From a bacterium (Candidatus Blackallbacteria) CG13_big_fil_rev_8_21_14_2_50_49_14 (lineage in GTDB: Bacteria; Cyanobacteriota; Sericytochromatia; UBA7694), in NCBI GenBank assembly GCA_002783405.1, contig PFGG01000035.1:113615-177614 (forward strand): a stretch of 64,000 nt of DNA, in the 5' to 3' direction. Numbering within the stretch: the stretch's first letter is position 1; every line of letters begins with the position of its first letter. The notes under the pieces were generated by a model. The model saw only the letters and a program-made list of their open reading frames with translations. It was not told the DNA's origin and searched no databases. The position numbers and the translations under genes were made by a program. Positions 7,086-33,506 of this stretch are shown one piece after another.

Positions 7086-8378
7086 TTAAAATTTCCCCAA
7101 AAATTGATCAAGTGTATCCTGAAAATAAGCAAGCGCTGAATCGGTAAGATCATGGTGAATGCCCACCATAAAGCCCCGATCATGCACATAATCAGCACCC
7201 GGCATCGCTGATTGGCCCTGACGAAATGCGAATTTATGCACCACTGGCTGGCGCAAAAAATTACCTGTAATCAAAGGACGGGTAAAAATTTGGGCAGATT
7301 GTAAAGCCCTTTGCAAGTCTTTGCGCTCAAAGGGAGCCCCTGGTTTCACCAGAATGGCCAGACCAAAAGCGGAAGAGGCATGCCCTGGCAAGGCCTGCTG
7401 AACCGCCAGCCAATCTCCCCAACGGTTTAAGATATGCGCCTGCAAAATTGCTAAAATATTCTGACGCCGAAGAATAAACGCATCCAGCCTTCCCAACTGA
7501 CTCAAACCTATCGCAGCGTGCATTTCAGTAGGCCGCAGATTATAGCCAGTTTCAACGAAAAGCCAGCCCCCTGTAAGTTCAGGAAAGCGCTCAATCCAGT
7601 CCTGCTGATCACTGCGGCCACGAATCCAACCATGTGCCCGCTGACTGATCAACAGATCCTGCCAATCTTGGGGTTTGCGCATACACACCATTCCCCCCTC
7701 AATCGTGGTCATATGGTGGGAGAGAAAAAAGCTGAAGCTGGAAAGGTCTCCAAAATTCCCGACCTTCACACCTTCAATCGTGGCACCATGGGCTTCACAG
7801 CAATCTTCAAGCACCCATAAATCATGCTTGCGGGCCAAAGCCATCAACTCAGGCATGGGGCAAGGGTTTCCCAAAACATGTACAGCCACCAGGGCACGGG
7901 TTTGGGGAGTAATCGCTGCTTCGACCTGCTCAAGACTCAGGTTCAGAGTCACGGGATCACAGTCCACAAAAACGGGAATGGCCCCCATCTGAACCACTGG
8001 AAAAACAGATGTTGACCAGCACACAGCGGGAACAATCACTTCATCACCCGGCTTCAAGGCGGGCTGAGTCTGTTGTGAAGCAAAAGCAGACAAAGCCAGA
8101 AGATTGGCTGAGGAGCCTGAATTGACCATCAAAGAGCCAGCCGATTGATTCCAATGGCTCCAGGCCTGCTCAAATTCTGCCACACGTTGCCCCATGCTGA
8201 CCTGACCGCTAAGTAAAACAGCCACAGCGGCCTGCAAGTCTTCTGGCTCAAAAAGGGTACGCATCAGTTCAAAGGGCTGCTGGGGAGGGGCCTGCATCAA
8301 TTGGCGCTGGTAGTTGCCTACCCACTCCAGAATCTGATCGTGCTGGGTTTCCAGATCACGCATGGGAAGCTCACTCAT
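7086..8378 (-). CDS. DegT/DnrJ/EryC1/StrS-family PLP-dependent sugar aminotransferase
   Basis: Length and motifs match sugar 4-aminotransferases of the ArnB/Per type (GDEVIVPA..., SFF..H...EGG lysine region). Its start overlaps the upstream GT2 gene by 4 nt. Confidence 0.85.
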   Translation of the reverse strand: MSELPMRDLETQHDQILEWVGNYQRQLMQAPPQQPFELMRTLFEPEDLQAAVAVLLSGQVSMGQRVAEFEQAWSHWNQSAGSLMVNSGSSANLLALSAFASQQTQPALKPGDEVIVPAVCWSTSVFPVVQMGAIPVFVDCDPVTLNLSLEQVEAAITPQTRALVAVHVLGNPCPMPELMALARKHDLWVLEDCCEAHGATIEGVKVGNFGDLSSFSFFLSHHMTTIEGGMVCMRKPQDWQDLLISQRAHGWIRGRSDQQDWIERFPELTGGWLFVETGYNLRPTEMHAAIGLSQLGRLDAFILRRQNILAILQAHILNRWGDWLAVQQALPGHASSAFGLAILVKPGAPFERKDLQRALQSAQIFTRPLITGNFLRQPVVHKFAFRQGQSAMPGADYVHDRGFMVGIHHDLTDSALAYFQDTLDQFLGKF

Positions 8379-9073
8379 TGCGGGCCGGCAGGCAGTTTGA
8401 GTTCACGAAAATACAACTTCAGAAAGGCAATCCCCGTTTGAATACTGGGAGACCCCTTTTCAGGTCCAATCCGGTTGCCTTCACGGGTTGGAAACTCAGC
8501 AATTTTCAAACCGTATTTAAGCGCCCGAATCGTGCTCTGATACTCTATCGTATATCCCGGCCCATCAGGCGCAAGGCGTTCCCAGGCCCGACGCGTAATC
8601 GCACGATAGCCATTGATACTGTCTGTCACAAAGGGATGTTGATGACGGTTAAAACTCATATTCGCCATTAAATTAAAGGCGTTATTTGCCCATTTCCGCC
8701 ATTTGAAAAATTGGTCGTCTTCTTCATTGCGTGCCCCTTCGACCATGCGCGTGCCAATCACAATATCATGACCGGCTTCCAGCAAAGGTCTGAACTTCGT
8801 CAAATCTCGCGGGTCTTCGTTGCCATCGGGGCTAAAAAAAATCAAAGCATCGGCATCTGTCGAGTCAAAGGCTATCCGAAAAGCTTCGCCCCGTCCTTTT
8901 GAAACCTGCTCACGTACAGGAAAAGCGTGTTGACGATAGAATTCAAGCGTTCCATCTTTGGAACCCCCATCCACGGCAAAATACTCATCGACACTGCCCA
9001 AAGGCAAATCCTTGAAAATAGCCTCCAAACCCGGCAATTCATCAAGGGTCAATAAAACCAAAGCCAATTTCAT
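8375..9073 (-). CDS. GT2 polyprenyl-phosphate glycosyltransferase (DPM1/ArnC-like, soluble form)
   Basis: Contains DGGSKDGT and a DxD-type GT2 core in about 232 aa. ATG at 9073 follows the ribosome-binding site aaggaaaaa and is coupled (ATGA) to the upstream reductase stop. Confidence 0.75.
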   Translation of the reverse strand: MKLALVLLTLDELPGLEAIFKDLPLGSVDEYFAVDGGSKDGTLEFYRQHAFPVREQVSKGRGEAFRIAFDSTDADALIFFSPDGNEDPRDLTKFRPLLEAGHDIVIGTRMVEGARNEEDDQFFKWRKWANNAFNLMANMSFNRHQHPFVTDSINGYRAITRRAWERLAPDGPGYTIEYQSTIRALKYGLKIAEFPTREGNRIGPEKGSPSIQTGIAFLKLYFRELKLPAGPQ

Positions 9074-10062
9074 ATGCTTTTTCCTTTGTGCTCTCGGTAC
9101 CACTGTAAGGTTTTCAAGAGCCCCTCGCGCAAAGGAGTTTCTGTCTGAAAACCTAATTTTTCAAGGGCTTTGCGGTTATCACAATGCCGACGGGGTTGCC
9201 CATTGGGCTTGCTGGTATCAAAGATCAACTCCAAAGAGCGGCCTGAAAGCTCCACCAAAAGAGAGGCCAGATCACGAATGGTAATTTCTTCGTCTGCTCC
9301 CAAATTAAAGGCCTCAGGCCCCTGGGCTTTTTCAGCCACCGTCAAAAGCCCATTGGCAAAATCTTCAACATAGAGAAAAGAACGGGAAGCACTGCCATCT
9401 CCCCAGACCACCAGGGGGTTAATTCCCTGCTCAATTTTATGAACCAAACCCGCAATCACATGGCTGCTTTGCGGATCAAAATCATCGCGCGGCCCATAGG
9501 CATTGAAGGGGCGGGCCACGACAATATCCATGCCAAACTCTTCGACATAGGCCTGGGCCATATATTCCTGCATACGCTTAGACCACCCATAACCCGCATT
9601 GGTGGGTTCAGGTGTTTCTTTAAAGCCTTCCTCTTCTGGGGTGGGGATACTGCTGTTTCGTGGATACACACAAGCTGAACTGGTCACAAGAAAACGTCTG
9701 ACTTCTTCTTGACGTGCGGCCTCCAGCGTACTGAGAAAAGCACGCATATTGTCGCGAAAAAGCGAGCCAGGATGAAGACGATTGAATTCAATGCCCCCAA
9801 CGCGGGCTGCCAAATGCAAAACCAGCTCCTGGCCCTGGCAACAGGCACGCGCAAAAGTTTCATCTTCAAGATTGCCCACCCGGGTATCAATCTCGTTTTT
9901 CACATTTTCCAGAAAACGGAAGCGATTCTCTTCAAGACTCGAGGTCGTCGTGACATGGGCCCCGGCAGCGACAAGCTTTTCAACTGTAAAGCTGCCAATA
10001 AAGCCATTTCCGCCGGTTACCAAGACCTTGCGGTTGTGCCAGAAATCAACGCCGATTGGCAT
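9070..10062 (-). CDS. NAD-dependent epimerase/reductase, GDP-L-fucose synthase (Fcl)-like
   Basis: Rossmann motif [12 protein letters not shown]. Fcl-like motifs [37 protein letters not shown] and KPNGQPRR. It overlaps the 3' end of gmd. The alternative GTG start at 10080 is also possible. Confidence 0.7.
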
Positions 10063-11125
10063 AATCAAAATCCTGATCACGGTAACCCGAAGGAAGAGAG
10101 CGAAACGCCTTGTCTTGACTGGGTTCTAAATTATAATCCAAAGGGTTCAGACCTACCGACTCAAGATCGGCCGCCAACATCAGACGCGCCAATTCTTTCA
10201 TACGGGTTTTGGCCTCCCAGCCCAATTTGGCTTTGGCTTTTGAAGCATCGCCAATCAAGAGGTCAACCTCTTTGGGACGAAAATAACGGGGATCGATACT
10301 GATAATTTCTTCCTGATTGAGGTTTACCTGTTCGCAGCAATAGTCCAAAAACTCTTTGACGGAGTGGGTTTCTCCGGTGGCCAAGACAAAATCCTCAGGT
10401 TGCTCCTGTTGCATCATCAACCACATGCCTTCTACGTATTCCCGCGCATAGCCCCAATCGCGTTTGGCTTCTAAATTGCCCAAATATATTTTGCTTTGGT
10501 GCCCTGCCAGGATAGCCGCCAGACCCATGGTGATTTTTCGCGTCACAAAGGTTTCACCCCGGCGTGGCGATTCATGATTAAACAAAATGCCATTCACCGC
10601 AAACAACTGGTGGGATTCACGCGCATTCATGGTCAACCAATAGGCCATCACTTTGGCACAGGCATAAGGTGAGCAGGGATAAAAAGGGGTCGTTTCACTC
10701 TGAGGAATAGCCCGCACATGCCCGTACATTTCACTGGAAGAAGCCTGGTAAAAACGGGCATCTGGTTTTTCTGTCAAAACAGCATCCAAAAGACGCTGAG
10801 TGCCCTGCCCAACCACATCAACGGTATAAGAAGGCGCATCAAATGAAACCCGCACATGGGATTGGGCTCCCAAATTATAGACTTCATCGGGCTGAATCTG
10901 GCGAATAAGCTGGTTTAAACGACTGGCATCACATAAATCGCCATAATGTAAAAAAAGATTATTCTTCTGTTGGTGAGGGTCTGAAAAAATACGCAAGATA
11001 CGCTGGGTACTGAAGGTGCTTGACCAACGGATCATGCCATGCACAATATATCCCTTGGCCAATAATAATTCAGCGAGATAAGAACCATCTTGACCGGTTA
11101 TGCCGGTAATAAAAGCCGTTTTCAA
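10046..11125 (-). CDS. gmd: GDP-mannose 4,6-dehydratase
   Basis: N-terminus [25 protein letters not shown] plus Gmd-specific motifs and 359 aa length. The start is TTG with an upstream aagg. Confidence 0.9.
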
Positions 11126-11293
11126 GTCTTTTAACCTTATAAAGAAAAATACGGGTTAAGGCCGCATTTTTTCTTTTTACTTTTGATCACAAATAAGCTC
11201 TGGTCAGTATAAGCTCCCTCGCAAGTACAGTCAATGAGGGTGGGTCTGGGTTCTGACGATTCAAAACTACAGCCAAAACCCAGACCAGGGGCT

Positions 11294-11302
11294 GCTGTAT
11301 AA
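11294..11302 (+). promoter_or_regulatory. Candidate extended -10 promoter element (tgTATAAT) for the GT4-GT2/MMPL operon, inside the divergent 210-bp intergenic region
   Basis: The sequence ctgTATAATac lies about 33 nt upstream of the ATG at 11336. An 8-bp inverted repeat tctgggtt...aacccaga (about 11242-11285) sits just upstream. Confidence 0.3.
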
Positions 11303-11335
11303 TACAGAAAAAGCAATTTTCTGGCAGGAATATCC

Positions 11336-13468
11336 ATGCGCATCGCCTTTCTTTCCCGCATTTCACGTGCCTTTAATGGGGAGACCGTCTATCATGAGCC
11401 CCTCGGAGGCACCCAAAGCGCAATTGTCTATCTGGCGCGGGAACTTCAAGCCCTGGGCCATGAAGTGCATGTTTTTTGCCAATGCAAAGAAAAAGCGGGT
11501 GTTTTTGAGGGCGTAACCTATCACAACGTACCCGACTTGGCCCGATTTGCCCGCCAGAACCCGCTTGATTTTTTTATTTCCTGTGCCGATGAAAGCGCCC
11601 TGAAACTGGGCATTCCCGCCCGCCACAACCTGTGGTGGTCCCACAATGACTATTGCTTTTTTTGGCATGAAATGCCCGACCTGCGTGCCAAAACAGCTGA
11701 AATTCTCGCCACAAAAGCAGATAAACTGGTCGCCGTCAGTGAATGGCATGCCCAGAAATTATCAGAGGTTCTTCAACTCCCACGCGAACATTTTTGGATC
11801 GCCCGCAATGCGGTGCATGCCCCCTGGTTTGAGCCGACACCCCAACCGGCCAGCCCTCCCCGCCTGATTTATTCCAGTGTTCCCGACCGGGGCTTGGATC
11901 TTCTGCTTGAGTTTTTTCCTGAAATTCAGGCCCAGGTGCCCGAGGTGGAGCTTCACCTTTATTCCAGTTTCACGGTCTGGGGCAAAAGTGTTGAATGGAA
12001 TCAGGCCAAAGCAGGGGCCCTGTATGCCGAAGCCCAAGCCCTGCCAGGTGTATTTTTGCATGACCCACTGCCCCACCCGCAATTGGCAGCAGCCCTGCTG
12101 GAAGGCTCTTTGATGGTCTATCCCAACCATGCTGCCGACCCCATCGACGAAAGTGGTTTTTGGGCTGAAACTTCCTGCATTGCCGCCCTCGAAGCCCAAG
12201 CTGCGGGCTTGCCTGTAATCACCAGCGCACGGGGGGCTTTGCTAGAAACGATTCAGGATCAACAGACGGGATTTGTTTTGCCTGGTGACCCCCACAGTGC
12301 AGCCTACCGTCAGAGCTTTATTGAAAAAACCGTCGCCTTGTTGCGCGACCCTGAAGCCCGGCAGAAATTGAGTACAGCCGCCCGTGCCCGCATTCAGGCT
12401 GAATATACCTGGCAATTGCGGGCCCGTGAATGGGATCAGTTTTTTCAAAGCTTCAGTTCAAGCCGCATGCAAAGCTCTCCCCTGCTCAGCCCTTTTCCTG
12501 CGCCTGAAATTTCAGTGATTATTCCGACCTATAACCGGGCCCGCAATCTCAAAAACTGTCTTGAATCTCTCACCTGGCAAACCTTTAAAGCCTTTGAAGT
12601 GATCATCTGCGATGATGGTTCCAGTGATAGCACCCGCGAAGTGGCCGAAAGTTTTCAGGAACGTCTCAATCTGGCCTATCGCTGGCAGGAAGATTTGGGT
12701 TTTCGTGCGGCTGAAGCCCGCAATCTGGGATTGAAACGTGCCCGCGCCAAACTGCTCGTTTTTCTGGACAGTGATCTGGTCGTGCCCGAAACCTTTCTTG
12801 CTGCACATTGGCAAGCCCACCAAAACTATCGCAATGTGGCTGTCAACAGCTACGTCACCCGCATGCTGGAAGCCGTGGATCAAGATCTGGGCCTTCCTCC
12901 TCAGGACTATATCCCCAAGCACCAGGAAATTCTCAAACCCGACAGCCGTGATCGCTACGAACTCTTCGAGCGGACAGGGCCCGTCGAAGAAACCTATTTC
13001 CTTGACAGCAATGCCCTCTCCATCTGGCGCGAAGATCTGGAAAGAGTCGGCAATTTTGATGGAAATTTTATCGGCTGGGGACACGAAGACACGGAACTGG
13101 GTTACCGCATTGCCCAGTACGGGATGAAGCTGCTGCTGATCAAAGAAGGTGCCACCGCCTACCACCAATACCACAGTGTTTCCGAAAGCAAAGACGAAGA
13201 ACGAGCCGTCAATTGGAAACTACTCACCAGCAAACATGGGATCAACCGCTGGTATCACCCCCTCTGGGAACTGCCGGTTGAAGGGGGGGTGCAACTGGTC
13301 ATAGAAGGTGAAATTACCGCCCAAGACAAAATTTTTTCAGTTTGGTCAGATGCCGCCTGGACACTCAAAACAGGCCACCCGATTCCCTTGGCTGGCCTGC
13401 ACTATCTTGTCAAAATTGAAAACGGAATTCTCAAAGCGATCGAACCCTTCAATGGCAGCCCCGCATGA
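11336..13468 (+). CDS. Bifunctional glycosyltransferase: N-terminal GT4 (GT-B) domain fused to C-terminal GT2 (GT-A) domain
   Basis: The N-terminal half has GT4 features (E..GG, LPVITSARGAL.E). The C-terminal half has the GT2 signature SVIIPTYNRARNLKNCLESL...CDDGSSD...FLDSDL. Length is 710 aa. Confidence 0.8.
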   Translation: MRIAFLSRISRAFNGETVYHEPLGGTQSAIVYLARELQALGHEVHVFCQCKEKAGVFEGVTYHNVPDLARFARQNPLDFFISCADESALKLGIPARHNLWWSHNDYCFFWHEMPDLRAKTAEILATKADKLVAVSEWHAQKLSEVLQLPREHFWIARNAVHAPWFEPTPQPASPPRLIYSSVPDRGLDLLLEFFPEIQAQVPEVELHLYSSFTVWGKSVEWNQAKAGALYAEAQALPGVFLHDPLPHPQLAAALLEGSLMVYPNHAADPIDESGFWAETSCIAALEAQAAGLPVITSARGALLETIQDQQTGFVLPGDPHSAAYRQSFIEKTVALLRDPEARQKLSTAARARIQAEYTWQLRAREWDQFFQSFSSSRMQSSPLLSPFPAPEISVIIPTYNRARNLKNCLESLTWQTFKAFEVIICDDGSSDSTREVAESFQERLNLAYRWQEDLGFRAAEARNLGLKRARAKLLVFLDSDLVVPETFLAAHWQAHQNYRNVAVNSYVTRMLEAVDQDLGLPPQDYIPKHQEILKPDSRDRYELFERTGPVEETYFLDSNALSIWREDLERVGNFDGNFIGWGHEDTELGYRIAQYGMKLLLIKEGATAYHQYHSVSESKDEERAVNWKLLTSKHGINRWYHPLWELPVEGGVQLVIEGEITAQDKIFSVWSDAAWTLKTGHPIPLAGLHYLVKIENGILKAIEPFNGSPA

Positions 13469-24070: not shown

Positions 24071-25510
24071 TCAGCCCATCAGCCCCTTGATCCAGTTCAG
24101 GACAAAAACCCCATTGGTCTTAGACACCTTGGGGTCGGCCTTCATTTGCGAAAGGCGTTCCACAAAGACCTGTTTTTCTTCAGGCTTCATATCCCCACGG
24201 CCCTGCCATTCAAAGAAGGTGTCCTGGGCCATCTGGGTCACGGTTTCAGGCGTTACTTCTGTCACTGCGTCTATTTCTTCATTTGAGAAATTGCCCTGGA
24301 TATGGCTCATGGCCGATTCAATATCCTGATCGAGCAGAGGTTTGTCTTTGTCTTTTTCAAGCATTTCAATCTGACGCACCAAGGCCGCCAATTGAATCTT
24401 ATGAATAATGCCTTTATCTGCCAGCATTTTATCGAAAGGCACCACGGTTCCCGCTTTAACATCGGCCTGCAGGAAAGCAAACCCCACAGGTTTGTCTTCG
24501 TGGTTGAGGTTATACGATTTCACCAATTGTTTCTTTTCAATATCTATCTGGGAAATAATCGGCGTAAAAAGCGCGCCCTCGTCGGTATAGGTCATCACCA
24601 TCAGGCTCTTGCGATCTGGGCTGATGGCAATCAGATCACAGGGGTCATCCACTTCGCTGAAGCGTTTGCCGGGCAGCAGAATCGTGCCCTGGTGGCTGTA
24701 ATCTTTAATCGAGAAAATCAAGACAGCCGGTTCCTTGCTGGCATCTGCCAGAACAGCAAAAATCAGGCCCAGTTTATCATCCAGGGTTAAATTCCCCAAA
24801 ATGCCATGCTCGGTATAAATCCGCTCTTTCTGGCGGTTGCTGGGGTTGATCACCAGAATATCCGGGGTATGGTGGTCGGTGATATAAATGGTTTTGGTCT
24901 GTTGTGAATAGGCCACATTGATCGCTTTTTTACTGCCGGGATCGCGCACCTGCAATTGGGCACTGGTCTGGCTGAGCGTAAAATCCGACATAAACAACGT
25001 GCCTGCGGCACGATCGATCAGAAAAATCCCCGTGTTCTGGTGCGGAGGAATAAAGAAATCATAGGGCCCACGCTTCACATCATTGACAGGCACCATCGTA
25101 TTGAGCAGCATATTCATCTGGTAAGCCTGGTTTTTCAGCCAGACATAGCCCCCCTTAAAACTGGGGGTGATTTCTGAATGGCCACGATCCTGTACTCCAG
25201 TAAAAACACCCTTTTCATTGAAGAGTGCGACTTTATTCGAGGCATAGGGTGCCCATTCTCCCTGAAAAGCTGGGGCGGGCATATCAAAAGAAGCCCATTC
25301 ATCCATAGCCTCATTGCCAGCGGGTGCGCTGCGATCCCGCAGCAGGAGACGGCCACTGTTGTGCTCAAGCAGGTAATTGCACTGCAGGGCTTCAATTTTC
25401 ATCAGAATATAGGTCTGAACCGCGATGGCCAGTTGTGAGGCAGAGGCTAAATTCTGCTGAACGGCCAGAGAGCAGAGTTTCTGAACGGATTCGCTTGTTG
25501 TAATTGGCAT
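24071..25510 (-). CDS. Hypothetical protein (479 aa), no recognisable family
   Basis: Long ORF with coding-like composition. No signal peptide and no known motif could be recalled. Confidence 0.5.
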   Translation of the reverse strand: MPITTSESVQKLCSLAVQQNLASASQLAIAVQTYILMKIEALQCNYLLEHNSGRLLLRDRSAPAGNEAMDEWASFDMPAPAFQGEWAPYASNKVALFNEKGVFTGVQDRGHSEITPSFKGGYVWLKNQAYQMNMLLNTMVPVNDVKRGPYDFFIPPHQNTGIFLIDRAAGTLFMSDFTLSQTSAQLQVRDPGSKKAINVAYSQQTKTIYITDHHTPDILVINPSNRQKERIYTEHGILGNLTLDDKLGLIFAVLADASKEPAVLIFSIKDYSHQGTILLPGKRFSEVDDPCDLIAISPDRKSLMVMTYTDEGALFTPIISQIDIEKKQLVKSYNLNHEDKPVGFAFLQADVKAGTVVPFDKMLADKGIIHKIQLAALVRQIEMLEKDKDKPLLDQDIESAMSHIQGNFSNEEIDAVTEVTPETVTQMAQDTFFEWQGRGDMKPEEKQVFVERLSQMKADPKVSKTNGVFVLNWIKGLMG

Positions 25511-25760: not shown

Positions 25761-26231
25761 ATGATCCTCTCCGATCGCCCCTTAAAATATCTCGACCAAC
25801 TGGGTGCCACGCTTTCACTGGCCTGTGCCGTGCATTGCGCCCTGCAACCACTTTTGCTGATAGCACTGCCCTTGATGGGCCTGGGCTTTCTGATGGATGA
25901 AACCCTTGAAACCGTTTTTCTGGCAGTGACCTTGAGCATGGCCGGTTGGGCCTTTTTCTCTGGCTTTAACCATCACCGCAAAGGCTCTGTGTTTGTCTTT
26001 TGGGGCTTGGCTGCCCTTTTAATCGGTGCCAGCCGTGTGCAGTTTCTTGAAAGCTATGAAATGCTTCTGGCTGTCAGCGGCGCTCTGGCCTTGATGTCTG
26101 GGCATCTGCTCAATCAGCATCTTCACCGCCAATACCATCTGCAGATCGCACCGATTCGCGCCACCATCGCAAAGCAGCTCGGCACGGGGCTTTTAAAAAC
26201 CGAGAAGATCAGCCACTCCTGCCAGCACTGA
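25761..26231 (+). CDS. Small polytopic membrane protein with a CAVHCA motif (MerC-domain-like)
   Basis: Four hydrophobic segments, with a Cys pair in TM1 (LACAVHCALQP). Confidence 0.4.
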   Translation: MILSDRPLKYLDQLGATLSLACAVHCALQPLLLIALPLMGLGFLMDETLETVFLAVTLSMAGWAFFSGFNHHRKGSVFVFWGLAALLIGASRVQFLESYEMLLAVSGALALMSGHLLNQHLHRQYHLQIAPIRATIAKQLGTGLLKTEKISHSCQH

Positions 26232-26517
26232 AGTGCGCAGCCTGCCTTCGCAGACCTGCAACGTGCCTTCCTCTGTTTTATCTCACACAACGTAAAACTT
26301 CAGCATTCTGGGCACCCTTGGTGTGCGGGCCAAAGCGTTCTGCCCGTATGACATAGAATATCCCTCAAGGGGAACCCCATCAGGCCCGGCCAGCAAAGCT
26401 GGCTAAATTGTTATTTTTAATAGAAATTATCTATCAAAAATTAAAAAATAAACGATTTTACAAATCATAAGATTTCCTGCATACTCACATTAAGCAAACA
26501 AACAGGAGATCAAAACC

Positions 26518-27249
26518 ATGAAAAACAGTGAAGGCCAAAAAGTTCCCCAGGTGGTATTCAAAACCCGTACCCCCGAAGGGCAGTGGCAAGACGTTTCAAG
26601 CGATGAGATTTTCACGGGCAAAACCGTGGTGCTCTTCGCTCTGCCCGGAGCCTTTACCCCCACCTGCTCAAGCACCCATGTCCCCGGCTATAATGCCCTG
26701 GCTCCCGTCTTTCGTGAGAATGGCGTCGATGAAATTGTCTGTCTTTCTGTGAATGACGCCTTTGTCATGGATGCCTGGAAAAAAGATCAGGGGGCCGATC
26801 AGATCCGCTTTCTGCCCGATGGCAATGGTGAATTCAGCGAAGCCATGGAGCTGCTGGTCGATAAAAGTGAGATTGGCTTTGGCAAACGCTCCTGGCGCTA
26901 CTCCATGCTGGTACGCAATGGCAAGATTGAAAAAATGTTCATTGAACCCGAAAAGCCAGGAGACCCCTTTGAGGTCTCTGACGCCGATACCATGCTGGCG
27001 TATCTGAATCCTGAAGCCAAAGCACCTGAATATATCAGCCTGATCACCCGTGCGGGCTGTCCGCACTGTACCCGTGCCAAAACCCTGCTCAAAAACCGGG
27101 GCCTGGCCTTTGAAGAGATCGAACTGAACGAACAGATCACCACCCGCTCGATTGAAGCCATTACGGGCCGGGCCACCACACCGCAGGTCTTTATCGGCGG
27201 TCGGCATATCGGCGGTGCCGATGAATTGGCTGCCTTCCTGGGCGAATAG
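26518..27249 (+). CDS. Hybrid peroxiredoxin (Prx5-type) fused to glutaredoxin
   Basis: The N-terminal Prx5 domain has the peroxidatic Cys in PGAFTPTCS. The C-terminal Grx domain has CPHCTRAK and TTPQVFIGGRHIGG. Ribosome-binding site acaggagat precedes the start. Same architecture as the known PGdx/Prx-Grx hybrids. Confidence 0.85.
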   Translation: MKNSEGQKVPQVVFKTRTPEGQWQDVSSDEIFTGKTVVLFALPGAFTPTCSSTHVPGYNALAPVFRENGVDEIVCLSVNDAFVMDAWKKDQGADQIRFLPDGNGEFSEAMELLVDKSEIGFGKRSWRYSMLVRNGKIEKMFIEPEKPGDPFEVSDADTMLAYLNPEAKAPEYISLITRAGCPHCTRAKTLLKNRGLAFEEIELNEQITTRSIEAITGRATTPQVFIGGRHIGGADELAAFLGE

Positions 27250-27272
27250 GATAAAAAGAGAGGATTGAAACC

Positions 27273-28718
27273 ATGCAAGTACGTCATGTTGATGTCGCTG
27301 TAATTGGCGGAGGAACCGCCGGACTCGCCGCCTGGCGGGAAGCCACCCAAGCAGGAGCAGAGGCCCTGCTGATCGAGGGGGGCCCCTATGGCACAACCTG
27401 CGCACGGGTAGGCTGCATGCCCAGCAAACTGTTGATTGCTGCAGCAGAAGCCGCCCGAGCGGTACGCAAGGCACCGGCTTTTGGCATTCAATCCTCTTTG
27501 CCCCAGATTGACGGGAAAGCCGTCATGGCAAGGGTTCGCAGTGAACGCGACCGCTTTGTGGGCTTTGTGCTCGAGGGCGTGGAGGCCATTCCCGCCGAAC
27601 TGCGGATACAAGGCTACGCCCGCTTTCTCAGCCCTACTCGCCTGCAGGTCGGTGACGATCTACAAATTGAAGCCCAAGCCATTGTGATCGCCACCGGTTC
27701 GAGTCCCTGGGTGCCCCCTCTGCTGCAAAATCTGGGCAATCGCCTGATCGACAACGAAGCACTTTTCAATTGGGAAGATTTGCCTGAATCTGTAGCGGTT
27801 TTTGGCGCTGGAGTGGTGGGGTTGGAGCTGGGACAGGCCCTTCACCAGCTGGGGGTACGGGTACATCTCTTCGGCGTGCGGGGAGCTGTGGGTGCGCTGA
27901 CCGATCCTGAGATCAAAGCAGAAGCCCAGGCCCTGTTTGCGGCTGAGTTTCCCTTTCAGACCGATGCTCGGGTAGAACGTGTTGAGCGCAGCGAAACAGG
28001 GGTTCGCATCAGCTACCTGAACACCCAGGACGAAACCATCAGCGAAAGCTTTGACTATGTCCTGGCAGCCACCGGCCGCTGGCCCAATCTCAGCCGTTTG
28101 GGGATTGAGGTTCTGGGCTTGCCACTGAACCGTTTGGGCTTGCCAGAATTTGACCCCCACACCCTTCAAATCGGGCGTTTGCCGATCTTTCTGGCGGGAG
28201 ATGTCAACAATGACCGCCCCCTGCTGCACGAGGCTGTGGATGAAGGCCGGATCGCGGGTGCAAATGCTGCGCATTGGCCCCAGCTACAGGCGGGCCAGCG
28301 CCGTTCACCGCTTTCGGTAATCTTTACCCACCCCCAGATCGCCATGATCGGTCAAAACTACAGCCAGCTCGATCTGGCCTGTAGCGCGATTGGCGAGGTC
28401 TCTTTCAAGCGTCAGGGGCGCAGCCGGGTCATGCTCGAAAATGAAGGGCGTTTGCGCATCTACGCCGATCACCGCAGCCGCCGTCTGCTCGGTGCAGAAA
28501 TGATCGGCCCCCGTGCCGAGCACCTGGCCCATTTGCTGGCCTGGGCGCACCAGCAGCAGCTGACCATTGATCAGTTGTTGGAAATGCCCTTTTACCACCC
28601 CGTGATCGAAGAGGGGGTGCGCACTGCGCTGCAGGAAACTCAGAAGGCCCTCAATCTGGGACCCGCCCGTGGCAAATGCGATTGTGGACTGCCTGAACCC
28701 GAGTTGATGCTGGGATAA
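27273..28718 (+). CDS. Class I pyridine nucleotide-disulfide oxidoreductase (glutathione / glutathione-amide reductase or dihydrolipoamide dehydrogenase family)
   Basis: FAD motif VIGGGTAGL. Redox-active disulfide GTTCARVGCMPSK. NAD(P) motif VFGAGVVGLELG. C-terminal HPVIEEG interface His-Glu pair. Lies 24 nt downstream of the prx-grx gene. Confidence 0.8.
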   Translation: MQVRHVDVAVIGGGTAGLAAWREATQAGAEALLIEGGPYGTTCARVGCMPSKLLIAAAEAARAVRKAPAFGIQSSLPQIDGKAVMARVRSERDRFVGFVLEGVEAIPAELRIQGYARFLSPTRLQVGDDLQIEAQAIVIATGSSPWVPPLLQNLGNRLIDNEALFNWEDLPESVAVFGAGVVGLELGQALHQLGVRVHLFGVRGAVGALTDPEIKAEAQALFAAEFPFQTDARVERVERSETGVRISYLNTQDETISESFDYVLAATGRWPNLSRLGIEVLGLPLNRLGLPEFDPHTLQIGRLPIFLAGDVNNDRPLLHEAVDEGRIAGANAAHWPQLQAGQRRSPLSVIFTHPQIAMIGQNYSQLDLACSAIGEVSFKRQGRSRVMLENEGRLRIYADHRSRRLLGAEMIGPRAEHLAHLLAWAHQQQLTIDQLLEMPFYHPVIEEGVRTALQETQKALNLGPARGKCDCGLPEPELMLG

Positions 28719-28726
28719 TTTTCTCG

Positions 28727-28768
28727 ACACAAGCAGGGGTTGAAAAGCCCCTGCTTGTGTGTTTTGAT
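28727..28768 (+). terminator. Rho-independent terminator closing the prx-grx/reductase operon
   Basis: Stem acacaagcagggg / cccctgcttgtgt around an 8-nt loop, followed by gttttgatat. Confidence 0.7.
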
Positions 28769-28818: not shown

Positions 28819-31800
28819 ATGCACTTACCATCTTCATTTAAAGCCGTTCTTTTATTTACCCTGATAGGACTTTTTAGATTTATTGTTCCTTTACCCAGCC
28901 AAGCTACTCAACCCGAATTAAGTTTTCAGAAATGGGCTTATCCTGAAGCCATGGAAGTAAGCCCAGATGGACGGTTTCTTCTCAGTATCGGCAATGGCTC
29001 TCTTCAAGTTTGGGATGCCCGTACAAGCAAACAGTTGTATCAATTAAATGATGTAGTTGCCTATTGTAACCCGCCACTTTGGATCGCTCCAGATTCAAGT
29101 AGCTTTGCATCTAATTGCAGTAACGATATCTTGAGCTCAGCACAGAATCTGAGAGTCTGGAAAATGAGCAGTGGACAGAAAATAGAATCCACAGCAGATC
29201 TTCAGATCGCTCTGAATACCCCCTTTGACATCAGCCCGGACGGCCAATATCTAGCAATACTCCAAAAAGTTAAAGAGAAAAATAACTTTCGTATCGCAAT
29301 CATTGATCGAAAAAACAATGAAATTAAACAGGTAATAGATAATCTCGCTGTATTACCTGAAATCATCCGTTTTATAAATCAGGGCCGTTTTCTTGTCTTC
29401 AGCATGGGAATTCCCGAAAAAGAGAAAGTTCCCTTTGGCAACTCAGGTAAGGTTGAAAAAGATCCCTATTTGATGATTTGGGATCTTCAAAATAAAAAAC
29501 CGGCCAAAACCTTGCAAAACAAAGGCTGGACAAGTCAGGCCAGTACGCCTGCAATTACTCAACTAAACCCTTTAATTGATCAAGCGGGAAAAATAATGGT
29601 CATCTTTCCTGGAAATACCTTTTCTGGAATTGAAAATCAAAACACCCCTGAAATATGGAGTTTAGAATCTGGAGAGCTTCTCCATACCCTGCCAACCAGA
29701 ACAAGCACACAGAAAATGCAAACCCTCAGCAAAGACGGAAACCTACTAGCCTATGAAGATAAAAACCAACTCCTCCTTTACCATCTTCCTTCTCAGCGTT
29801 ATCTCTTCAAAAAAAGCCTTTCTGAAAAACCAAAACCACTGAGTTTTTCTTACGACAATCGCTATCTATACCTGGCAAATCTTAAACAAGGAATTCAAAT
29901 TCTAGATATAAACGAACAGAAAATAACGCAAAATCTTCAGGGGCATTTTTCTCTCAATCAACGCTCTGAATACAGTCCAGAAGCAGGTATTCTTATCCAA
30001 ATGGGTTTAGATTGGATCCAAGATATTGACAAACCTTATATACAAATCTGGAATATGCGTCAGGGAACACGCAGTTTTGTTGTTACAAACAAAACAAATC
30101 CCAATCCTCCAGATGATTTCAAACTCAGCAAAGATGGTAAAACCTTAGCGGTTCTGAATCGACACAAAATAGCTACTTCTGAAAATGGCTATGAACTCAA
30201 TCTGTATACCCTTCAAAATGGAATTCCTCAAAAATTACGCACCCTTACGTTTCCTTACCTTGCACAAAGTCGCTTCATTAAAGAACAAGGCTTATCAAAA
30301 AAACTTTGGGAATTCAGTTCAAACGGCAAATTCATTTATTTTGCCGAAAATTTATATCCTCCTTCACCCAATCAAAAGGTCATCATCAAACGTTTAGATC
30401 TGCAATCGGAAAAAATTGAAACGCTGATACCCCTTTCAGCTTTGGAAAGTTTTCATATTTCGCCCCAAGAAGATCTTCTGATTGCAGAAGAACAACGCAA
30501 AACCCAATTTTGGTCACTTCAAAACAAAACACTTTTACATGAAAATCAATTCAATGGCCCAACAAATTCTTACCGTTTTATTTCCCACCAAGCCTTCAGT
30601 CCTGATGGAAAATTCTATATCCTCAATTCAATTTCCCATCCGACTGAAATTTGGTCCCTGAAAGATTTAAAAAAAATACAAACCTTAACCCCTGCAATGT
30701 TTTTCACGAGCAAAGAACAAGCACAATTGCCTTTAAATCATATATACAAAAGCCTATTTTCACCCGATGGGAAATATTTAGTGACTTTTTATCCCGCCAA
30801 ACCCGATATGATTACAAATGGCACAACACAACTAGGCATAGCCATTTGGCGAACCTCCGACTGGCATTTAATTGCAAATAAAGAGGTTCCCAGTTTCTGG
30901 GGGCTTCCCCCTGGAATCAGCTTTAATAACGAGAATCAAATCTGGGCCTATACCCCTAGCGAAATTCTGGAATGGAATAGTAAAACCGATGCCATCACCC
31001 GCTTTTACTTGACTGGATCGGCTCAGGGCTGGGTTCTGGCCACAGATCAGGGATACTACCGAGCCTCTCAAAATGGGGTGGATATGTTTGCCTTTCATGT
31101 TGGCGAACACGCTTTTCCCTTTGAACAGTTTGATCTAAATTTCAACCGACCTGATAAAATTCTGGAAGCCTTAAATGCCCCAAAAGACGAGATTCAACTC
31201 CACCATCAGGTTTGGCAAAAACGACTGCGGCGCTTGAATATCCGTGAAGAATGGCTGAAACCCAGTTTTCACCTGCCCGAACTTACTTTACTCACCGAGC
31301 AGATTCCACCAGCAACTTCAGAACCCCGTCTGAAACTCAAGGTGCTGGCCAAAGACTCAGATTTTACTCTGGACAGGCTGATGGTCTACGATAACGATGT
31401 GCCGATTCACGGACGCAAAGGCCTCTCTTTAAACGCCGAAAACCTGCACAGTCTGGAACAAGAAATTGAAATTCCCCTGGTGCCTGGTACCAATAAAATT
31501 CAGGTCTCTGTGCTGAATCGAGCAGGAACAGAATCACTGCGTGAAACAGTCAGTATTCATTTCACGGGCCAAACAGCCTCACCGGTTTTACACCTGATCA
31601 CCGTTGGTGTTTCCGATTACCGCCAGAAAAACTTTAATCTGCGTTATGCAGCCAAAGATGCCCAGGATATTCACAACTATTTCAAAACCAAAACCACTTT
31701 AAAATATGAACTCCGACCGACCCAGTTGCTGAACCGCCAAGTCAGCCGGGAAGCGGTTCTCAAACTGCGAAAGCAACTGGAACAGAGCCGGCCTCAGGAT

Positions 31801-32397
31801 CGTGTAATTCTCTTCTTTGCGGGTCATGGCCTGCTTGATCAGGAAAAAAACTATTATTTCGCCCCCCATGAAATTGACTTCGATCACCCTGAAAAACAGG
31901 GGCTGCGCTTTGAAGAAATCGAAGATCTGCTCGATGGCATTCCCGCCCGCGAAAAGCTGCTCCTGATTGACACTTGCAATGCCGGTGAATTGGATAAGGA
32001 ACTCCAGGCTGAACAGATCAGTTTCACTCAACCCCAGGGACAGGTAAAAGCCCGGGCAATTCGCGGTTTCAAGATCACACAACACCTGGGCATGAATAAA
32101 CTCAATCAACTGCTTGAAGAGAGTTTTCTGGATCTGCGCAGGGATACCGGCGCAACGATCATTACCTCCAGCCAGGGGCTTGAATACGCCCTGGAATCTG
32201 CCCAATGGAAAAACGGTGTCTTTACCTTTGCCTTACTCGATGGCCTGAAAAGCAGAAAAGCCGATCTCAACGCCGATGGCGAGGTCAGAGTATCTGAACT
32301 CAAGAGCTATATTATCCAAAAGGTTCAGGAGCTGACCCGTTCTGCACAAACCCCCAATTTCAGGCGTGTCAATCTCAACAATGACTTTACGTTTTAA
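28819..32397 (+). CDS. Secreted multi-blade beta-propeller (WD40/PD40-like repeats) protein with a C-terminal caspase-like peptidase C14 domain
   Basis: N-terminal signal peptide. About 850 aa of repeats with recurring SPDG(K/Q)(Y/F)L blade motifs. The C-terminus reads HLITVGVSDYR...ILFFAGHGL...LLLIDTCNAGE, a caspase His/Cys dyad in canonical spacing. Confidence 0.8.
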   Translation: MHLPSSFKAVLLFTLIGLFRFIVPLPSQATQPELSFQKWAYPEAMEVSPDGRFLLSIGNGSLQVWDARTSKQLYQLNDVVAYCNPPLWIAPDSSSFASNCSNDILSSAQNLRVWKMSSGQKIESTADLQIALNTPFDISPDGQYLAILQKVKEKNNFRIAIIDRKNNEIKQVIDNLAVLPEIIRFINQGRFLVFSMGIPEKEKVPFGNSGKVEKDPYLMIWDLQNKKPAKTLQNKGWTSQASTPAITQLNPLIDQAGKIMVIFPGNTFSGIENQNTPEIWSLESGELLHTLPTRTSTQKMQTLSKDGNLLAYEDKNQLLLYHLPSQRYLFKKSLSEKPKPLSFSYDNRYLYLANLKQGIQILDINEQKITQNLQGHFSLNQRSEYSPEAGILIQMGLDWIQDIDKPYIQIWNMRQGTRSFVVTNKTNPNPPDDFKLSKDGKTLAVLNRHKIATSENGYELNLYTLQNGIPQKLRTLTFPYLAQSRFIKEQGLSKKLWEFSSNGKFIYFAENLYPPSPNQKVIIKRLDLQSEKIETLIPLSALESFHISPQEDLLIAEEQRKTQFWSLQNKTLLHENQFNGPTNSYRFISHQAFSPDGKFYILNSISHPTEIWSLKDLKKIQTLTPAMFFTSKEQAQLPLNHIYKSLFSPDGKYLVTFYPAKPDMITNGTTQLGIAIWRTSDWHLIANKEVPSFWGLPPGISFNNENQIWAYTPSEILEWNSKTDAITRFYLTGSAQGWVLATDQGYYRASQNGVDMFAFHVGEHAFPFEQFDLNFNRPDKILEALNAPKDEIQLHHQVWQKRLRRLNIREEWLKPSFHLPELTLLTEQIPPATSEPRLKLKVLAKDSDFTLDRLMVYDNDVPIHGRKGLSLNAENLHSLEQEIEIPLVPGTNKIQVSVLNRAGTESLRETVSIHFTGQTASPVLHLITVGVSDYRQKNFNLRYAAKDAQDIHNYFKTKTTLKYELRPTQLLNRQVSREAVLKLRKQLEQSRPQDRVILFFAGHGLLDQEKNYYFAPHEIDFDHPEKQGLRFEEIEDLLDGIPAREKLLLIDTCNAGELDKELQAEQISFTQPQGQVKARAIRGFKITQHLGMNKLNQLLEESFLDLRRDTGATIITSSQGLEYALESAQWKNGVFTFALLDGLKSRKADLNADGEVRVSELKSYIIQKVQELTRSAQTPNFRRVNLNNDFTF

Positions 32398-32399
32398 CG

Positions 32400-33428
32400 T
32401 TAATTGTGCAGAAAACGAAAGACCCTGACAGCGTTTTGATTGCCTTGCACCCATTCTTCAAGGGCTTGAACAGAAACAGCAGGCGTCACTTGGTAATTCT
32501 GAGCTTGTCCAGTACTGATCTGACTGATACCCCGGACTTTTACCATCGCTTCCAGCACTTCAGCAGGCTGAGAAAAATAGCTCTGTTGTAAAAGAATTTG
32601 AATATCCGGTTGTGGTGCATGCGCAGCAATCAGATAAAGCTTTTCTTCTCCCCGGTTTTGATCCAATTGATAAAATTTTCCTGGAGCAGGTAAAACATAG
32701 GATTTTCCAGCTTTCAGTGCATTATTCAAAAGCCCATCCGGGTGAGGAATTAAAGCAAATACCTGCCCTTGACTGTCAACGCTGGCACCATAGAGATAGC
32801 AGTCCTGCTCAGGGCGAAAATGAATCTGAAACTCAGCACCTGAGGACAAACTCTCTCCCTCTTTCAAAATCTTCTGTTGGTATTGCTTGGAACTGTCTGT
32901 TTTAATCTGAATCCCGCGCACACCCGCCTGAACAGGCTCCCAGGCAACAAGATTAAAACTGAATTTAAGAGGGGCCAAGGGAGAACTGCCACTTTGTAAA
33001 CTGTGGTTCAAACTCTGTAAAAGAGCCTGGGCAGCAACCGTTTGAACTTCGGCTTTAATCTTGACCCGAATCAGAAAAGATTTTTGCTCTTCATCAAATT
33101 TCGTCTGGGTTTCAAGCACCTCCAAAACCTTGACCAGACCTTGGGCCATGGTTTTAACCTGATCGCGCTGCAAAACATAATTTTCAGTTTCTGTTTGTGA
33201 AAAAACCAAGGTGCCAGACTGCTCCAAGGCATTGCGACGGGCTTCAGCAAGTGCTTGGTTTTTGATCTCCTCAAGCGTCGAACCTGTTCCCCCTGAAGCC
33301 TCTCCCAAGGCAAAGACAATCTGTTTCTGGGCCTCTGCTTGAGCCGCAGAAGAAGTCTCGGCCTTCAGTTCAAAAGACTGTAAAAGTGAAAAACAAAACA
33401 ATAAACCTGCCAGCAAAACTCTCATCAC
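32400..33428 (-). CDS. Secreted protein, DUF4384-like C-terminal domain (family often associated with bacterial caspase-domain proteins)
   Basis: Signal peptide MMRVLLAGLLFCFSLLQS. The C-terminal region contains CYLYGASVDSQGQVFALIPHPDG, and the protein is 342 aa. The family call is from motif memory only. It is convergent with the caspase gene, with stops 2 nt apart. Confidence 0.5.
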   Translation of the reverse strand: MMRVLLAGLLFCFSLLQSFELKAETSSAAQAEAQKQIVFALGEASGGTGSTLEEIKNQALAEARRNALEQSGTLVFSQTETENYVLQRDQVKTMAQGLVKVLEVLETQTKFDEEQKSFLIRVKIKAEVQTVAAQALLQSLNHSLQSGSSPLAPLKFSFNLVAWEPVQAGVRGIQIKTDSSKQYQQKILKEGESLSSGAEFQIHFRPEQDCYLYGASVDSQGQVFALIPHPDGLLNNALKAGKSYVLPAPGKFYQLDQNRGEEKLYLIAAHAPQPDIQILLQQSYFSQPAEVLEAMVKVRGISQISTGQAQNYQVTPAVSVQALEEWVQGNQNAVRVFRFLHN

Positions 33429-33506
33429 TTACCCCACTTTTAAATACCAGCTTATGGGTTCCAGTATCTCAAAGACCCCATCTGAGAATCAAGAGAGCGA
33501 GTCGTT

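Follow-up and report, generated by a model that had tools for sequence, protein, structure and literature searches.

A two-gene cassette pairing a predicted exported propeller-caspase protein with a DUF4384 partner in Candidatus Blackallbacteria

Caspase homologues abound in prokaryotes, but substrates are known for very few of them, and discussion nearly always assumes cytoplasmic cell death. In the window (a 64,000-nucleotide stretch of a Candidatus Blackallbacteria contig), a caspase-like gene that begins like a secreted protein converges on a gene for a DUF4384 protein. What would such a caspase do outside the cytoplasm, and is its neighbor part of the same system? The most likely function, judging from sequence features, is an Arg/Lys-specific envelope protease module whose partner serves as anchor or regulator, and the locus offers a compact, testable example in which the gene for a putatively exported caspase-like protease is linked to that of a partner.

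Both open reading frames lie where the first-pass annotation had placed them, gene A encoding 1192 aa and gene B 341 aa. The start of gene B is a GTG at 33428 in the list of open reading frames and an ATG at 33425 in public annotations. Coordinates also confirm that the two stop codons are 2 nt apart on opposite strands (TAA at 32395-32397 on the + strand; TTA at 32400-32402, read on the - strand). The genes are therefore convergent and do not share one transcript. The locus consists of the following features.

28727..28760, + strand: strong intrinsic-terminator-like hairpin (15-bp stem and T-run) that ends the upstream flavoprotein-reductase gene
28819..32397, + strand: gene A, predicted exported propeller-Ig-caspase protein (NCBI PIQ26674.1, annotated as hypothetical / Peptidase C14 domain protein)
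32400..33425, - strand: gene B, predicted exported FlgP/LPP20-like and DUF4384 protein (NCBI PIQ26675.1)
28923..33500, no strand: extent of the cassette in common with the orthologous locus L001 (blastn; flanks non-homologous)

Comparison with L001 by blastn returned one HSP, which joins window positions 28923-33500 to L001 positions 8102-12693, and no shared DNA outside that interval. The convergent layout with its 2-nt gap is repeated in L001 and L002, where the flanking genes are unrelated, and the hairpin at 28727..28760 forms the left cassette boundary. These results demonstrate that the 4.6-kb two-gene block is co-inherited as one cassette and occupies a different genomic context in its relative. 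Its neighbors in the window are housekeeping genes, with no CRISPR/Cas genes found among them, and a search of window positions 26-36 kb, around the cassette, found no repeats (including those of the diversity-generating retroelement type) and no Rfam RNAs. The identical gene A sequence is present on 6 Blackallbacteria MAG contigs (NCBI, UniRef).

Gene A divides into a propeller half and a catalytic core, as follows.

28819..28905, + strand: signal-peptide-like N-terminus, residues 1-29, MHLPSSFK-AVLLFTLIGLFRFIVPL-PSQA↓TQ, the sole hydrophobic segment of gene A
28906..31068, + strand: two tandem beta-propellers, residues ~30-750, the variable mosaic half (AF2, Foldseek, weak Pfam)
31069..31272, + strand: helical linker, residues ~751-818, with family motifs GYYxAS and QFxxxFxRPD (AF2 helices 772-805; consensus motifs from the family alignment)
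31273..31572, + strand: Ig-like beta-sandwich, residues ~819-918 (AF2 strands 821-915)
31573..32394, + strand: Peptidase_C14 caspase-like domain, residues 919-1192 (Pfam, family alignment, PDB profile search)
31825-31827, + strand: catalytic His1003, GHG motif, invariant
31975-31977, + strand: catalytic Cys1053, DxCxSG motif, invariant
31993..32103, + strand: disordered Lys/Arg-rich inter-subunit loop, residues 1059-1095, with a family-conserved A-x-R-G (R1082-G1083; pLDDT <50)

A caspase domain with an intact dyad had been read from FFAGHG and DTCNAG in the translation, and this assignment held. Pfam Peptidase_C14 (PF00656) matches residues 929-1190 at 51.9 bits (cut-off 21.4; E=1.1e-13; profile positions 7-232 of 233), and D947, H1003, G1004, C1053 and G1056 are invariant across a 19-sequence family alignment, with D1051 conserved in at least 90%. 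The single caspase-domain sequence retrieved no matches from the PDB, and a family profile was required; it matched Geobacter GSU0716 (3bij, 3.5e-10), Yca1 (4f6o, 7e-10), AtMC4, TbMCA2 and MALT1. GHG and DxCxSG line up with the catalytic His and Cys motifs of Yca1, AtMC4, TbMCA2 and MALT1 (SGHG and DSCHSG in Yca1/AtMC4), while in the profile alignment the candidate S1 aspartates Asp947 and Asp1051 sit in the NDA and DSC (D-x-C) motifs of Yca1/AtMC4. Two pocket Asp residues are reported as retained in orthocaspases (PMC6426788). Because gene A has two acidic S1 residues, as in meta- and orthocaspases, we infer that its protease is specific for Arg/Lys at P1. The loop at residues 1059-1095 is a candidate autoprocessing site that the protease might cleave. 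At the position of the Ig-like domain, Pfam Big_7 is matched in homologues P0009 and P0016 and in the L016 protein. GSU0716, Yca1, AtMC4 and TbMCA2, the best profile matches to the caspase domain, share its aligned motifs at low identity; unlike gene A, they have a single domain or a pro-domain and lack propellers, Ig domain, signal peptide and DUF4384 partner.

The first-pass annotation had assigned about 850 aa to propeller blades. A double propeller is seen in the AF2 model (~59 strands, pLDDT 77) and by Foldseek, which matched tandem two-propeller proteins (best E=5e-26), but its extent is ~720 aa (residues 30-750), after which the linker and Ig-like domain begin. Run on the full-length protein, Foldseek gave mostly propeller matches and was uninformative for the caspase part. 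The beta-propeller matches in Pfam are weak, with WD40 (PF00400) at 22.7 bits falling under its cut-off of 27 and PD40 passing only in sum (25.3 bits; cut-off 20.9) with no individual stretch reaching threshold.

The two halves of gene A differ sharply in their divergence from L001. Amino-acid identity is 56% in the propellers, 85% in the linker, 89% in the Ig-like domain and 85-91% in the Ig-caspase core, and gene B is 88% identical. At the nucleotide level the propeller part is 56-69% identical, and dS rises from ~0.55 in the core and 0.94 in gene B to >1.7 in the propellers, whose GC content is 39.4%. Because divergence is high in the propellers and low in the core and partner, and GC there is 39%, this comparison of two alleles suggests that the propeller (i.e., recognition) module was exchanged while core and partner, which co-vary, were kept. 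The apparent swap around a fixed core and partner suggests which part sets specificity and which parts cooperate, and the propellers are a plausible sensor.

Signal-bearing N-termini had been proposed for both proteins, and both are indeed signal-peptide-like. In each, one hydrophobic stretch at the N-terminus precedes an A-x-A-like site (PSQA↓TQ in gene A; LKA↓ET in gene B), and neither contains further membrane-spanning segments. AF2 models residues 5-21 of gene A as a helix followed by a low-confidence stretch, and the orthologue P0002 retains the n-h-c layout with SAQA↓GS despite 26% identity in this segment. These heuristic n-h-c/SPase I features, conserved in orthologues and relatives, make export of both proteins probable. 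All full-length relatives of gene B have signal or lipoprotein-type N-termini. The earlier statement that bacterial caspase-propeller proteins are usually cytoplasmic did not stand for the relatives of gene A: signal-bearing propeller-caspases are common among its nearest homologues, 12 of 18 aligned homologues begin with hydrophobic, signal-like segments, and extracytoplasmic C14 proteins were already remarked on in 2012 (PMC3501461). A literature search on periplasmic orthocaspases returned nothing relevant.

Gene B carries a putative FlgP/LPP20-like domain and a DUF4384 domain behind its putative signal peptide, as listed below.

33360..33425, - strand: signal-peptide-like N-terminus, residues 1-22, MR-VLLAGLLFCFSLL-QSFELKA↓ET, the sole hydrophobic segment of gene B
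33021..33338, - strand: FlgP/LPP20-like alpha/beta domain, residues ~30-135 (profile-level matches)
32403..32870, - strand: extended DUF4384 unit, residues ~186-341, comprising the Pfam core and a conserved C-terminal tail (Pfam, family alignments)
32529-32534, - strand: near-invariant R298-G299 in the DUF4384 tail (subfamily alignment)

We rejected gene B as a lipoprotein, as Cys11 lies inside the hydrophobic core after L-L-F and does not form a lipobox. For the N-terminal domain, FlgT_N scored 18.4 bits on the single sequence, below the Pfam cut-off of 28.8, and a search of the PDB with that sequence gave only noise. A 13-member family profile, which was required, matched 9hmf_C (a Campylobacter-type lipoprotein, 4.6e-5) and FlgP (8z5n, 1e-4), and relatives of gene B match LPP20, FlgO, CsgG and FlgT_N. 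The C-terminal domain, first described as DUF4384-like, proved to be a bona fide DUF4384 (PF14326; residues 195-270, 45.2 bits against a cut-off of 27, E=1e-11). Very few DUF4384 relatives came from word-indexed homologue searches. Across 1420 representative proteins, the matches usually span gene B residues ~180 to 340, and the domain forms the C-terminal end in 126/154 proteins. Y212, D217, P227, P246, G259, E261, Y264, R298 and the penultimate H340 are invariant in the gene B subfamily and conserved in 140 diverse members as well, to which the DUF4384 residues Y, D, P, P, D, G, E and Y are common. Searching the PDB with a broad profile of 126 DUF4384 sequences gave no homologue of the core, and the AF2 model of gene B is poor (pLDDT 48.7).

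Does the partnership extend beyond this cassette? In a small locus survey, to which a 7-sequence alignment query contributed one locus from a genome and four from metagenomes, genes of the DUF4384 subfamily adjoin a predicted exported clan-CD protease, either C14 or CHAT, in 6 of the 8 informative lineages and in three gene orders. Directly upstream of the DUF4384 gene lies a WD40-Big_7-C14 gene in L016; a C14 lipoprotein gene is upstream in L011 and a CHAT gene in L008. A TPR-CHAT lipoprotein gene is divergent from the DUF4384 gene in L014 and L022, and the beginning of a C14 gene lies downstream of it in L009. Single-chain signal-C14-DUF4384 fusions without an internal membrane segment also occur (P0086, P0128 and P0152). 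The pairing recurs in unrelated bacteria. Given the rarity of C14 and CHAT genes in genomes, chance adjacency is implausible at the observed rate, and the association of gene A with gene B is not by chance. The functional pairing proposed at first reading gains from all three lines: the mobile cassette, the neighbor survey and the fusions. The coupling is frequent but not obligate, because five distant exported WD40-Ig-C14 homologues lack a DUF4384 neighbor and two lineages of the DUF4384 subfamily lack a clan-CD neighbor.

The DUF4384 domain itself has a wider range. Its fusion partners include CHAT, C14, CsgG, OmpA, FlgO and LPP20, and in kinase-type proteins it is placed after the membrane helix; by these architectures it is consistently extracytoplasmic. 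Because it also accompanies kinases, OmpA and CsgG in the absence of any protease, its primary role may be to bind a general envelope ligand rather than a protease. For this family (>1400 representative clusters found, with fusions to proteases, kinases and outer-membrane anchors), the locus supplies a working hypothesis.

The association of C14 with DUF4384 is already known though uncharacterised, and surveys of orthocaspases place WD40 as their commonest accessory domain and DUF4384 as the fifth commonest (PMC8283722, PMC7475262, PMC3501461). The host lineage of the cassette is a sister group to Cyanobacteria, home of the orthocaspases compared here (e.g., MaOC1 of Microcystis), and gene A resembles these in its C14 p20-type domain, its His-Cys dyad and its acidic S1 pocket, from which Arg/Lys specificity is predicted. 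In contrast to them, gene A places its caspase at the C-terminus, after a putative signal peptide, a pair of degenerate propellers and an Ig-like domain, and DUF4384 sits on a separate, predicted exported protein that also bears a FlgP/LPP20-like domain. The surveys describe fusions; a split two-gene cassette is not among them, and no characterised example is from the envelope. The split exported propeller-caspase cassette is a new variant of the known association.

Taken together, we favor, at a probability of roughly 0.55, a reading in which the cassette is a self-contained, horizontally movable envelope module of an exported Arg/Lys protease and a docking or regulatory partner. Gene A would be a Sec-exported C14 cysteine protease of orthocaspase type that cuts after Arg/Lys, with a conserved catalytic core (linker, Ig-like domain and caspase) and a double propeller acting as an exchangeable recognition module that chooses the target or the activating ligand. 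The FlgP/LPP20-like domain of gene B could provide outer-membrane placement, or oligomerisation beneath the outer membrane, and its DUF4384 unit would act in the compartment of the protease core. Gene B would then most likely be a docking or regulatory subunit (or anchor) that positions or restrains the protease. That the two proteins physically interact, which way regulation runs and what the module targets are parts of this model that we infer. In Escherichia coli, the periplasmic protease Prc is directed by a separately encoded outer-membrane lipoprotein adaptor, NlpI. This pair serves as a working analogy only; Prc is a serine protease and NlpI a TPR protein, so folds and catalytic classes are unrelated to those of the cassette.

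Could gene B instead be the dedicated substrate of a proteolytic switch? By analogy with Csx29/Csx30, the ligand-engaged protease would cut after Arg298 (KVR↓G), where a loop of variable length begins, and thereby release or remodel the FlgP-like scaffold. R298-G299 is invariant in the subfamily, and of 140 diverse DUF4384 domains 113-115 have it. A helix ends at this site, followed by an indel-rich, very low-confidence segment. The protease is predicted to be Arg/Lys-specific and itself has a similar A-x-R-G in its disordered inter-subunit loop. Moreover, one group of Csx30 proteins, the target of the CHAT protease Csx29, has a C-terminal DUF4384 (bioRxiv 10.1101/2022.08.17.504292). However, the RG shows the same conservation where DUF4384 is fused to kinases, OmpA or CsgG with no evident protease, which argues for a structural or ligand-binding role; in the cis fusions DUF4384 shares a chain with the protease, as would be expected of a regulatory or targeting domain rather than of a substrate; and the structural model around R298 is unreliable. 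On balance we consider the substrate role unlikely. Type III-E Craspase, the source of the analogy, likewise encodes a clan-CD protease (Csx29, TPR-CHAT) beside its partner (Csx30), and we liken the cassette to it as a protease switched on by a recognition event. Craspase differs in being cytoplasmic, RNA-guided and dependent on Cas7-11/crRNA, and Csx29 cuts after Met or Leu; the cassette protease is C14 with propellers rather than CHAT, both cassette proteins have export-type signals, and no CRISPR/Cas lies nearby.

Less probable still is an immunity-like pair, in which the protease would be destined for the surface or medium (for nutrition or attack on competitors) and a periplasmic gene B would be the cognate inhibitor shielding the producer's envelope, by analogy with periplasmic inhibitors encoded beside secreted protease genes. 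We also give little credence to an apoptosome-like surveillance system of the periplasm, in which swappable propeller receptors would sense an intruder or damage (phage, predator or competitor) and an Arg-specific caspase would cut the FlgP-like/DUF4384 scaffold at its invariant Arg-Gly, leading to envelope remodelling or altruistic lysis. Were it true, DUF4384 would be a general extracytoplasmic module wiring clan-CD proteases and Ser/Thr kinases to the envelope.

That gene A and gene B are functionally independent, with DUF4384 binding a general envelope ligand and the adjacency incidental, is very improbable. The many DUF4384 architectures without a protease, the two subfamily lineages without a clan-CD neighbor and the separate transcripts of convergent genes speak for this reading, but against it stand inheritance of the pair as a single 4.6-kb block in two unrelated contexts, C14/CHAT adjacency in 6/8 informative lineages with three gene orders, and the cis fusions. 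A cytoplasmic cell-death or anti-phage caspase of NLR/EACC1 or Craspase type, whose hydrophobic N-termini would not be signal peptides, is scarcely credible. In its favor, PADLOC returned a match, though only to a generic caspase (E=2e-8), Apaf-1 propellers are among the Foldseek matches and NCBIfam NF047832 (caspase_w_EACC1, the EACC1-associated type) scores gene A at 81.9 bits; but the cut-off of that model is 140, no NTPase, EACC1, Cas7-11 or CRISPR component occurs in the protein or its neighbors, signal or lipoprotein-type N-termini mark both proteins and nearly all relatives, and the gene B domains (putative FlgP/LPP20-like and DUF4384) are envelope domains.

FlgP, FlgT and Lpp20 are ring or scaffold lipoproteins associated with the outer membrane, to which the N-terminal domain of gene B is alike at profile level; unlike them, gene B has no lipobox, and no flagellar genes adjoin the cassette. 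As a separate observation from the locus survey, Nitrospinae-type loci carry a second LPP20 gene after the DUF4384 gene.

Gene calling recovered both open reading frames where the first-pass annotation had placed them, with convergent stops 2 nt apart, and the FFAGHG and DTCNAG motifs were present in the translation of the protease gene (gene A).

28819-32397, plus strand, gene A, ORF of 1192 aa
32400-33428, minus strand, gene B, ORF of 342 aa from a GTG start

Public annotations begin gene B one codon later (ATG 33425, 341 aa). The exact proteins, sequenced from Candidatus Blackallbacteria MAGs, are NCBI PIQ26674.1 (gene A, labelled only "hypothetical" or "Peptidase C14 caspase domain-containing") and PIQ26675.1 (gene B, labelled only "DUF4384 domain-containing"). 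On a near-identical JGI metagenome contig (L003, ~7946), a 1-nt deletion in the A5 run at window 29417-29421 (CCCGAAAAAGAG to CCCGAAAAGAG) breaks gene A into two ORFs of 217 and 974 aa. Six other contigs encode the unbroken protein of 1192 aa; the deletion reflects either faulty assembly or a frameshift carried by a minority variant.

A Pfam profile search placed Peptidase_C14 at gene A residues 929-1190, over threshold (E=1.1e-13). D947, A948, H1003, G1004, C1053 and G1056 were invariant in the family alignment, and D1051 was nearly so. A catalytic-domain profile matched Geobacter GSU0716 (3bij, 3.5e-10), yeast Yca1 (7e-10), AtMC4, TbMCA2 and MALT1, with GHG and DxCxSG falling on the catalytic motifs of solved metacaspases, in agreement with the proposal of an intact His-Cys dyad. 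Since every sequence-defined feature tested was found, gene A is, by sequence, a member of Peptidase_C14. In the same profile the aspartates D947 and D1051 aligned at the NDA and D-x-C positions, and two pocket aspartates are reported to be conserved in orthocaspases (PMC6426788), so the protease is predicted to be Arg/Lys-specific at P1. Gene A scored far under the NCBIfam model cut-off for EACC1-associated caspases, and its placement in that subfamily or in a Craspase system was rejected.

We modelled gene A with AlphaFold2 from 19 homologues (mean pLDDT 77, pTM 0.65).

Predicted structural features of gene A (AlphaFold2)
Residues 5-21, N-terminal helix
Residues 33-750, ~59 beta-strands
Residues 772-805, helices
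Residues 821-915, Ig-like sandwich
Residues 923-1192, caspase fold
Residues 1059-1095, disordered loop within the caspase fold

The predicted beta-propellers span ~720 aa rather than the 850 first estimated, as judged from the strand span and from Foldseek, in which tandem two-propeller proteins matched ~730 residues (E down to 5e-26). Weak Pfam beta-propeller matches run along residues 45-650, and the canonical WD40 repeat model scored under its cut-off. Pfam Big_7 matches in homologues coincide with the position of the Ig-like domain. The disordered loop contains Lys/Arg and keeps A-x-R-G across the family, making it a candidate autoprocessing site.

Each protein has a single hydrophobic segment, at the N terminus, followed by PSQA-TQ in gene A and LKA-ET in gene B. 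Identity to the gene A orthologue is just 26% here, yet the orthologue keeps the n-h-c layout and SAQA-GS, and all full-length gene B relatives have signal or lipoprotein-type N termini. These sequence features strongly suggest that both proteins are exported. The premise that propeller-caspases are usually cytoplasmic did not hold among relatives of gene A: 12 of 18 aligned gene A homologues have signal-like N termini (one has a clear lipobox), and a 2012 survey found that many prokaryotic C14 proteins appear extracytoplasmic (PMC3501461).

Four lines of evidence establish that the pairing of genes A and B is real. Another metagenome lineage carries a protease 67% identical and a partner 88% identical in the same convergent 2-nt layout. 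The flanking genes of this orthologous cassette are entirely different from those in the window (on one side a flavoprotein reductase gene ending in a strong terminator, on the other proB), and DNA homology between the loci is restricted to window 28923-33500. A survey of loci encoding the FlgP-like/DUF4384 subfamily bore out the suggested co-occurrence, as a clan-CD protease adjoined the DUF4384 gene in 6/8 informative lineages, in three gene orders; L018, whose upstream side is cut off, was left out as uninformative.

Clan-CD neighbours of the DUF4384 gene in compared loci
L016/L017, WD40-Big_7-C14 gene 14 nt upstream
L011, 531-aa C14 lipoprotein-like gene upstream
L008, CHAT gene upstream
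L014/L015 and L022, divergent TPR-CHAT lipoprotein gene
L009, beginning of a C14 gene downstream
L012 (Nitrospinae MAG), no clan-CD neighbour
L007/L010 (Gemmatimonadetes MAG and matching metagenome contig), no clan-CD neighbour

The nearest DUF4384 relatives also include fusions to CHAT (5) and C14 (3); all three C14 fusions are signal-C14-DUF4384 proteins without an internal membrane segment, which puts both domains on one side of the membrane. The association is not obligatory for the protease, as no DUF4384 gene adjoins any of five distant homologues that are exported and have a WD40-Ig-C14 architecture. Downstream of P0004, a distant homologue that is exported and has a WD40-C14 architecture, lie genes for a 283-aa protein without a Pfam match and for a CHASE2-domain protein (L004 3273-5286); these may be an alternative set of partners for proteases built in this way. 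The L007/L010 gene (L007 5229-6479, L010 2495-3745) has an in-frame stop (L007 5829-5831), is followed by S9 and M28 peptidase genes and may be a decaying orphan.

Comparison of the two cassette alleles, domain by domain, revealed a break in divergence near nt 31000.

Divergence between the window cassette and its orthologue
Signal peptide and propellers (residues 1-750), aa identity 56% (propellers), nt 56-69%, dS >1.7
Linker, Ig-like domain and caspase, aa identity 85-91%, nt 78-94%, dS ~0.55
Partner gene, aa identity 88%, nt 78-94% over most of its length, dS ~0.94

The propeller part (28901-31000) has a GC content of 39.4%, against 47.6% for the rest of gene A and 51% for the whole window; the orthologue's propeller part has 47%. 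Because silent-site divergence and composition differ within one gene, these two alleles point, short of proof, to exchange or recombination of the propeller module onto a conserved core-plus-partner.

The identification of gene B as a DUF4384 protein was upheld by an over-threshold Pfam match at residues 195-270; a FlgT_N match was weak and under threshold. When 1.84 billion cluster representatives were searched exhaustively with HMMER, 1420 relatives emerged, about a dozen of them full-length (30-44% identity, 277-345 aa). The others align only over residues ~180-340, so the conserved unit is about twice the Pfam model; it reaches the C terminus in 126/154 proteins. Y212, D217, P227, P246, G259, E261, Y264, R298 and H340 are invariant in the full-length subfamily and the polar ones are also kept in 140 diverse DUF4384 members, a pattern more suggestive of a functional site than of residues needed only for folding. 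Fusion partners among 126 close relatives were CsgG (12), OmpA (12), FlgO (10), FlgT_N (7), LPP20 (3), TPR and Ser/Thr kinases (7), and a membrane helix directly precedes DUF4384 in the kinase-type proteins. Both observations indicate that DUF4384 is consistently a predicted extracytoplasmic module. In published work it figures solely as an accessory domain (PMC8283722, PMC6426788, bioRxiv 2025.01.12.632604, bioRxiv 2022.08.17.504292): the fifth most common one of cyanobacterial orthocaspases (PMC8283722), C-terminal in trypsin-like/pseudo-orthocaspase proteins and kinases (PMC6426788; bioRxiv 2025.01.12.632604), and one form of the C-terminal domain of Csx30, which the CHAT protease Csx29 cleaves (bioRxiv 2022.08.17.504292).

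We favour, with a probability of roughly 0.55, an exported two-component module in which the double propeller would be the exchangeable recognition module of an Arg/Lys-specific C14 protease, and the outer-membrane-proximal FlgP-like/DUF4384 partner would act on the conserved protease core as anchor or regulator. A propeller swap on a fixed core-plus-partner would be expected if target choice lies with the propellers and the partner cooperates with the core. The main rival, that the partner is a substrate cleaved at the invariant Arg298-Gly299 preceding a variable loop, is unlikely; the conservation of this Arg-Gly motif in DUF4384 domains without proteases speaks against it. Less probable still is an inhibitor/immunity pair: gene order and co-conservation are compatible with it, the wider DUF4384 distribution is not. 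There is little support for chance adjacency or for a cytoplasmic role in cell death or defence. Domain surveys have already recorded WD40-C14 and C14-DUF4384 associations. Undescribed so far are the exported cassette split over two genes, the partner's putative FlgP/LPP20-like domain, the Ig-like spacer, the mosaic propeller and the repeated occurrence of FlgP-like/DUF4384 subfamily genes beside those of exported C14 or CHAT proteases.

A conserved x-R-G borders a predicted disordered loop in both proteins (gene B Arg298-Gly299, 32529-32534; gene A Arg1082-Gly1083, 32062-32067), and an Arg-specific protease might cut at these positions. Between a pyridine-nucleotide-disulphide oxidoreductase gene (9 nt away) and gene A (58 nt away) stands a very strong terminator-like hairpin (28727-28760; 15-bp stem with 8 GC pairs). 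Gene A therefore needs its own promoter; a consensus scan found none. The redox cluster upstream (25761-28718; MerC-like membrane protein, peroxiredoxin-glutaredoxin fusion, flavoprotein disulphide reductase) is unrelated to the cassette. A 479-aa ORF (24071-25510, minus strand), which is predicted as a gene on the JGI contig too, matched no Pfam family at E<=0.001 or at 0.01. In Nitrospinae-type loci, the start of a small second gene overlaps the end of the DUF4384 gene, which suggests a larger envelope scaffold in these lineages.

Second small gene in Nitrospinae-type loci
L012 8944-9408, L014 8950-9585 and L022 5038-5673, LPP20-family protein
L018 1047-1682, same position, product of 211 aa
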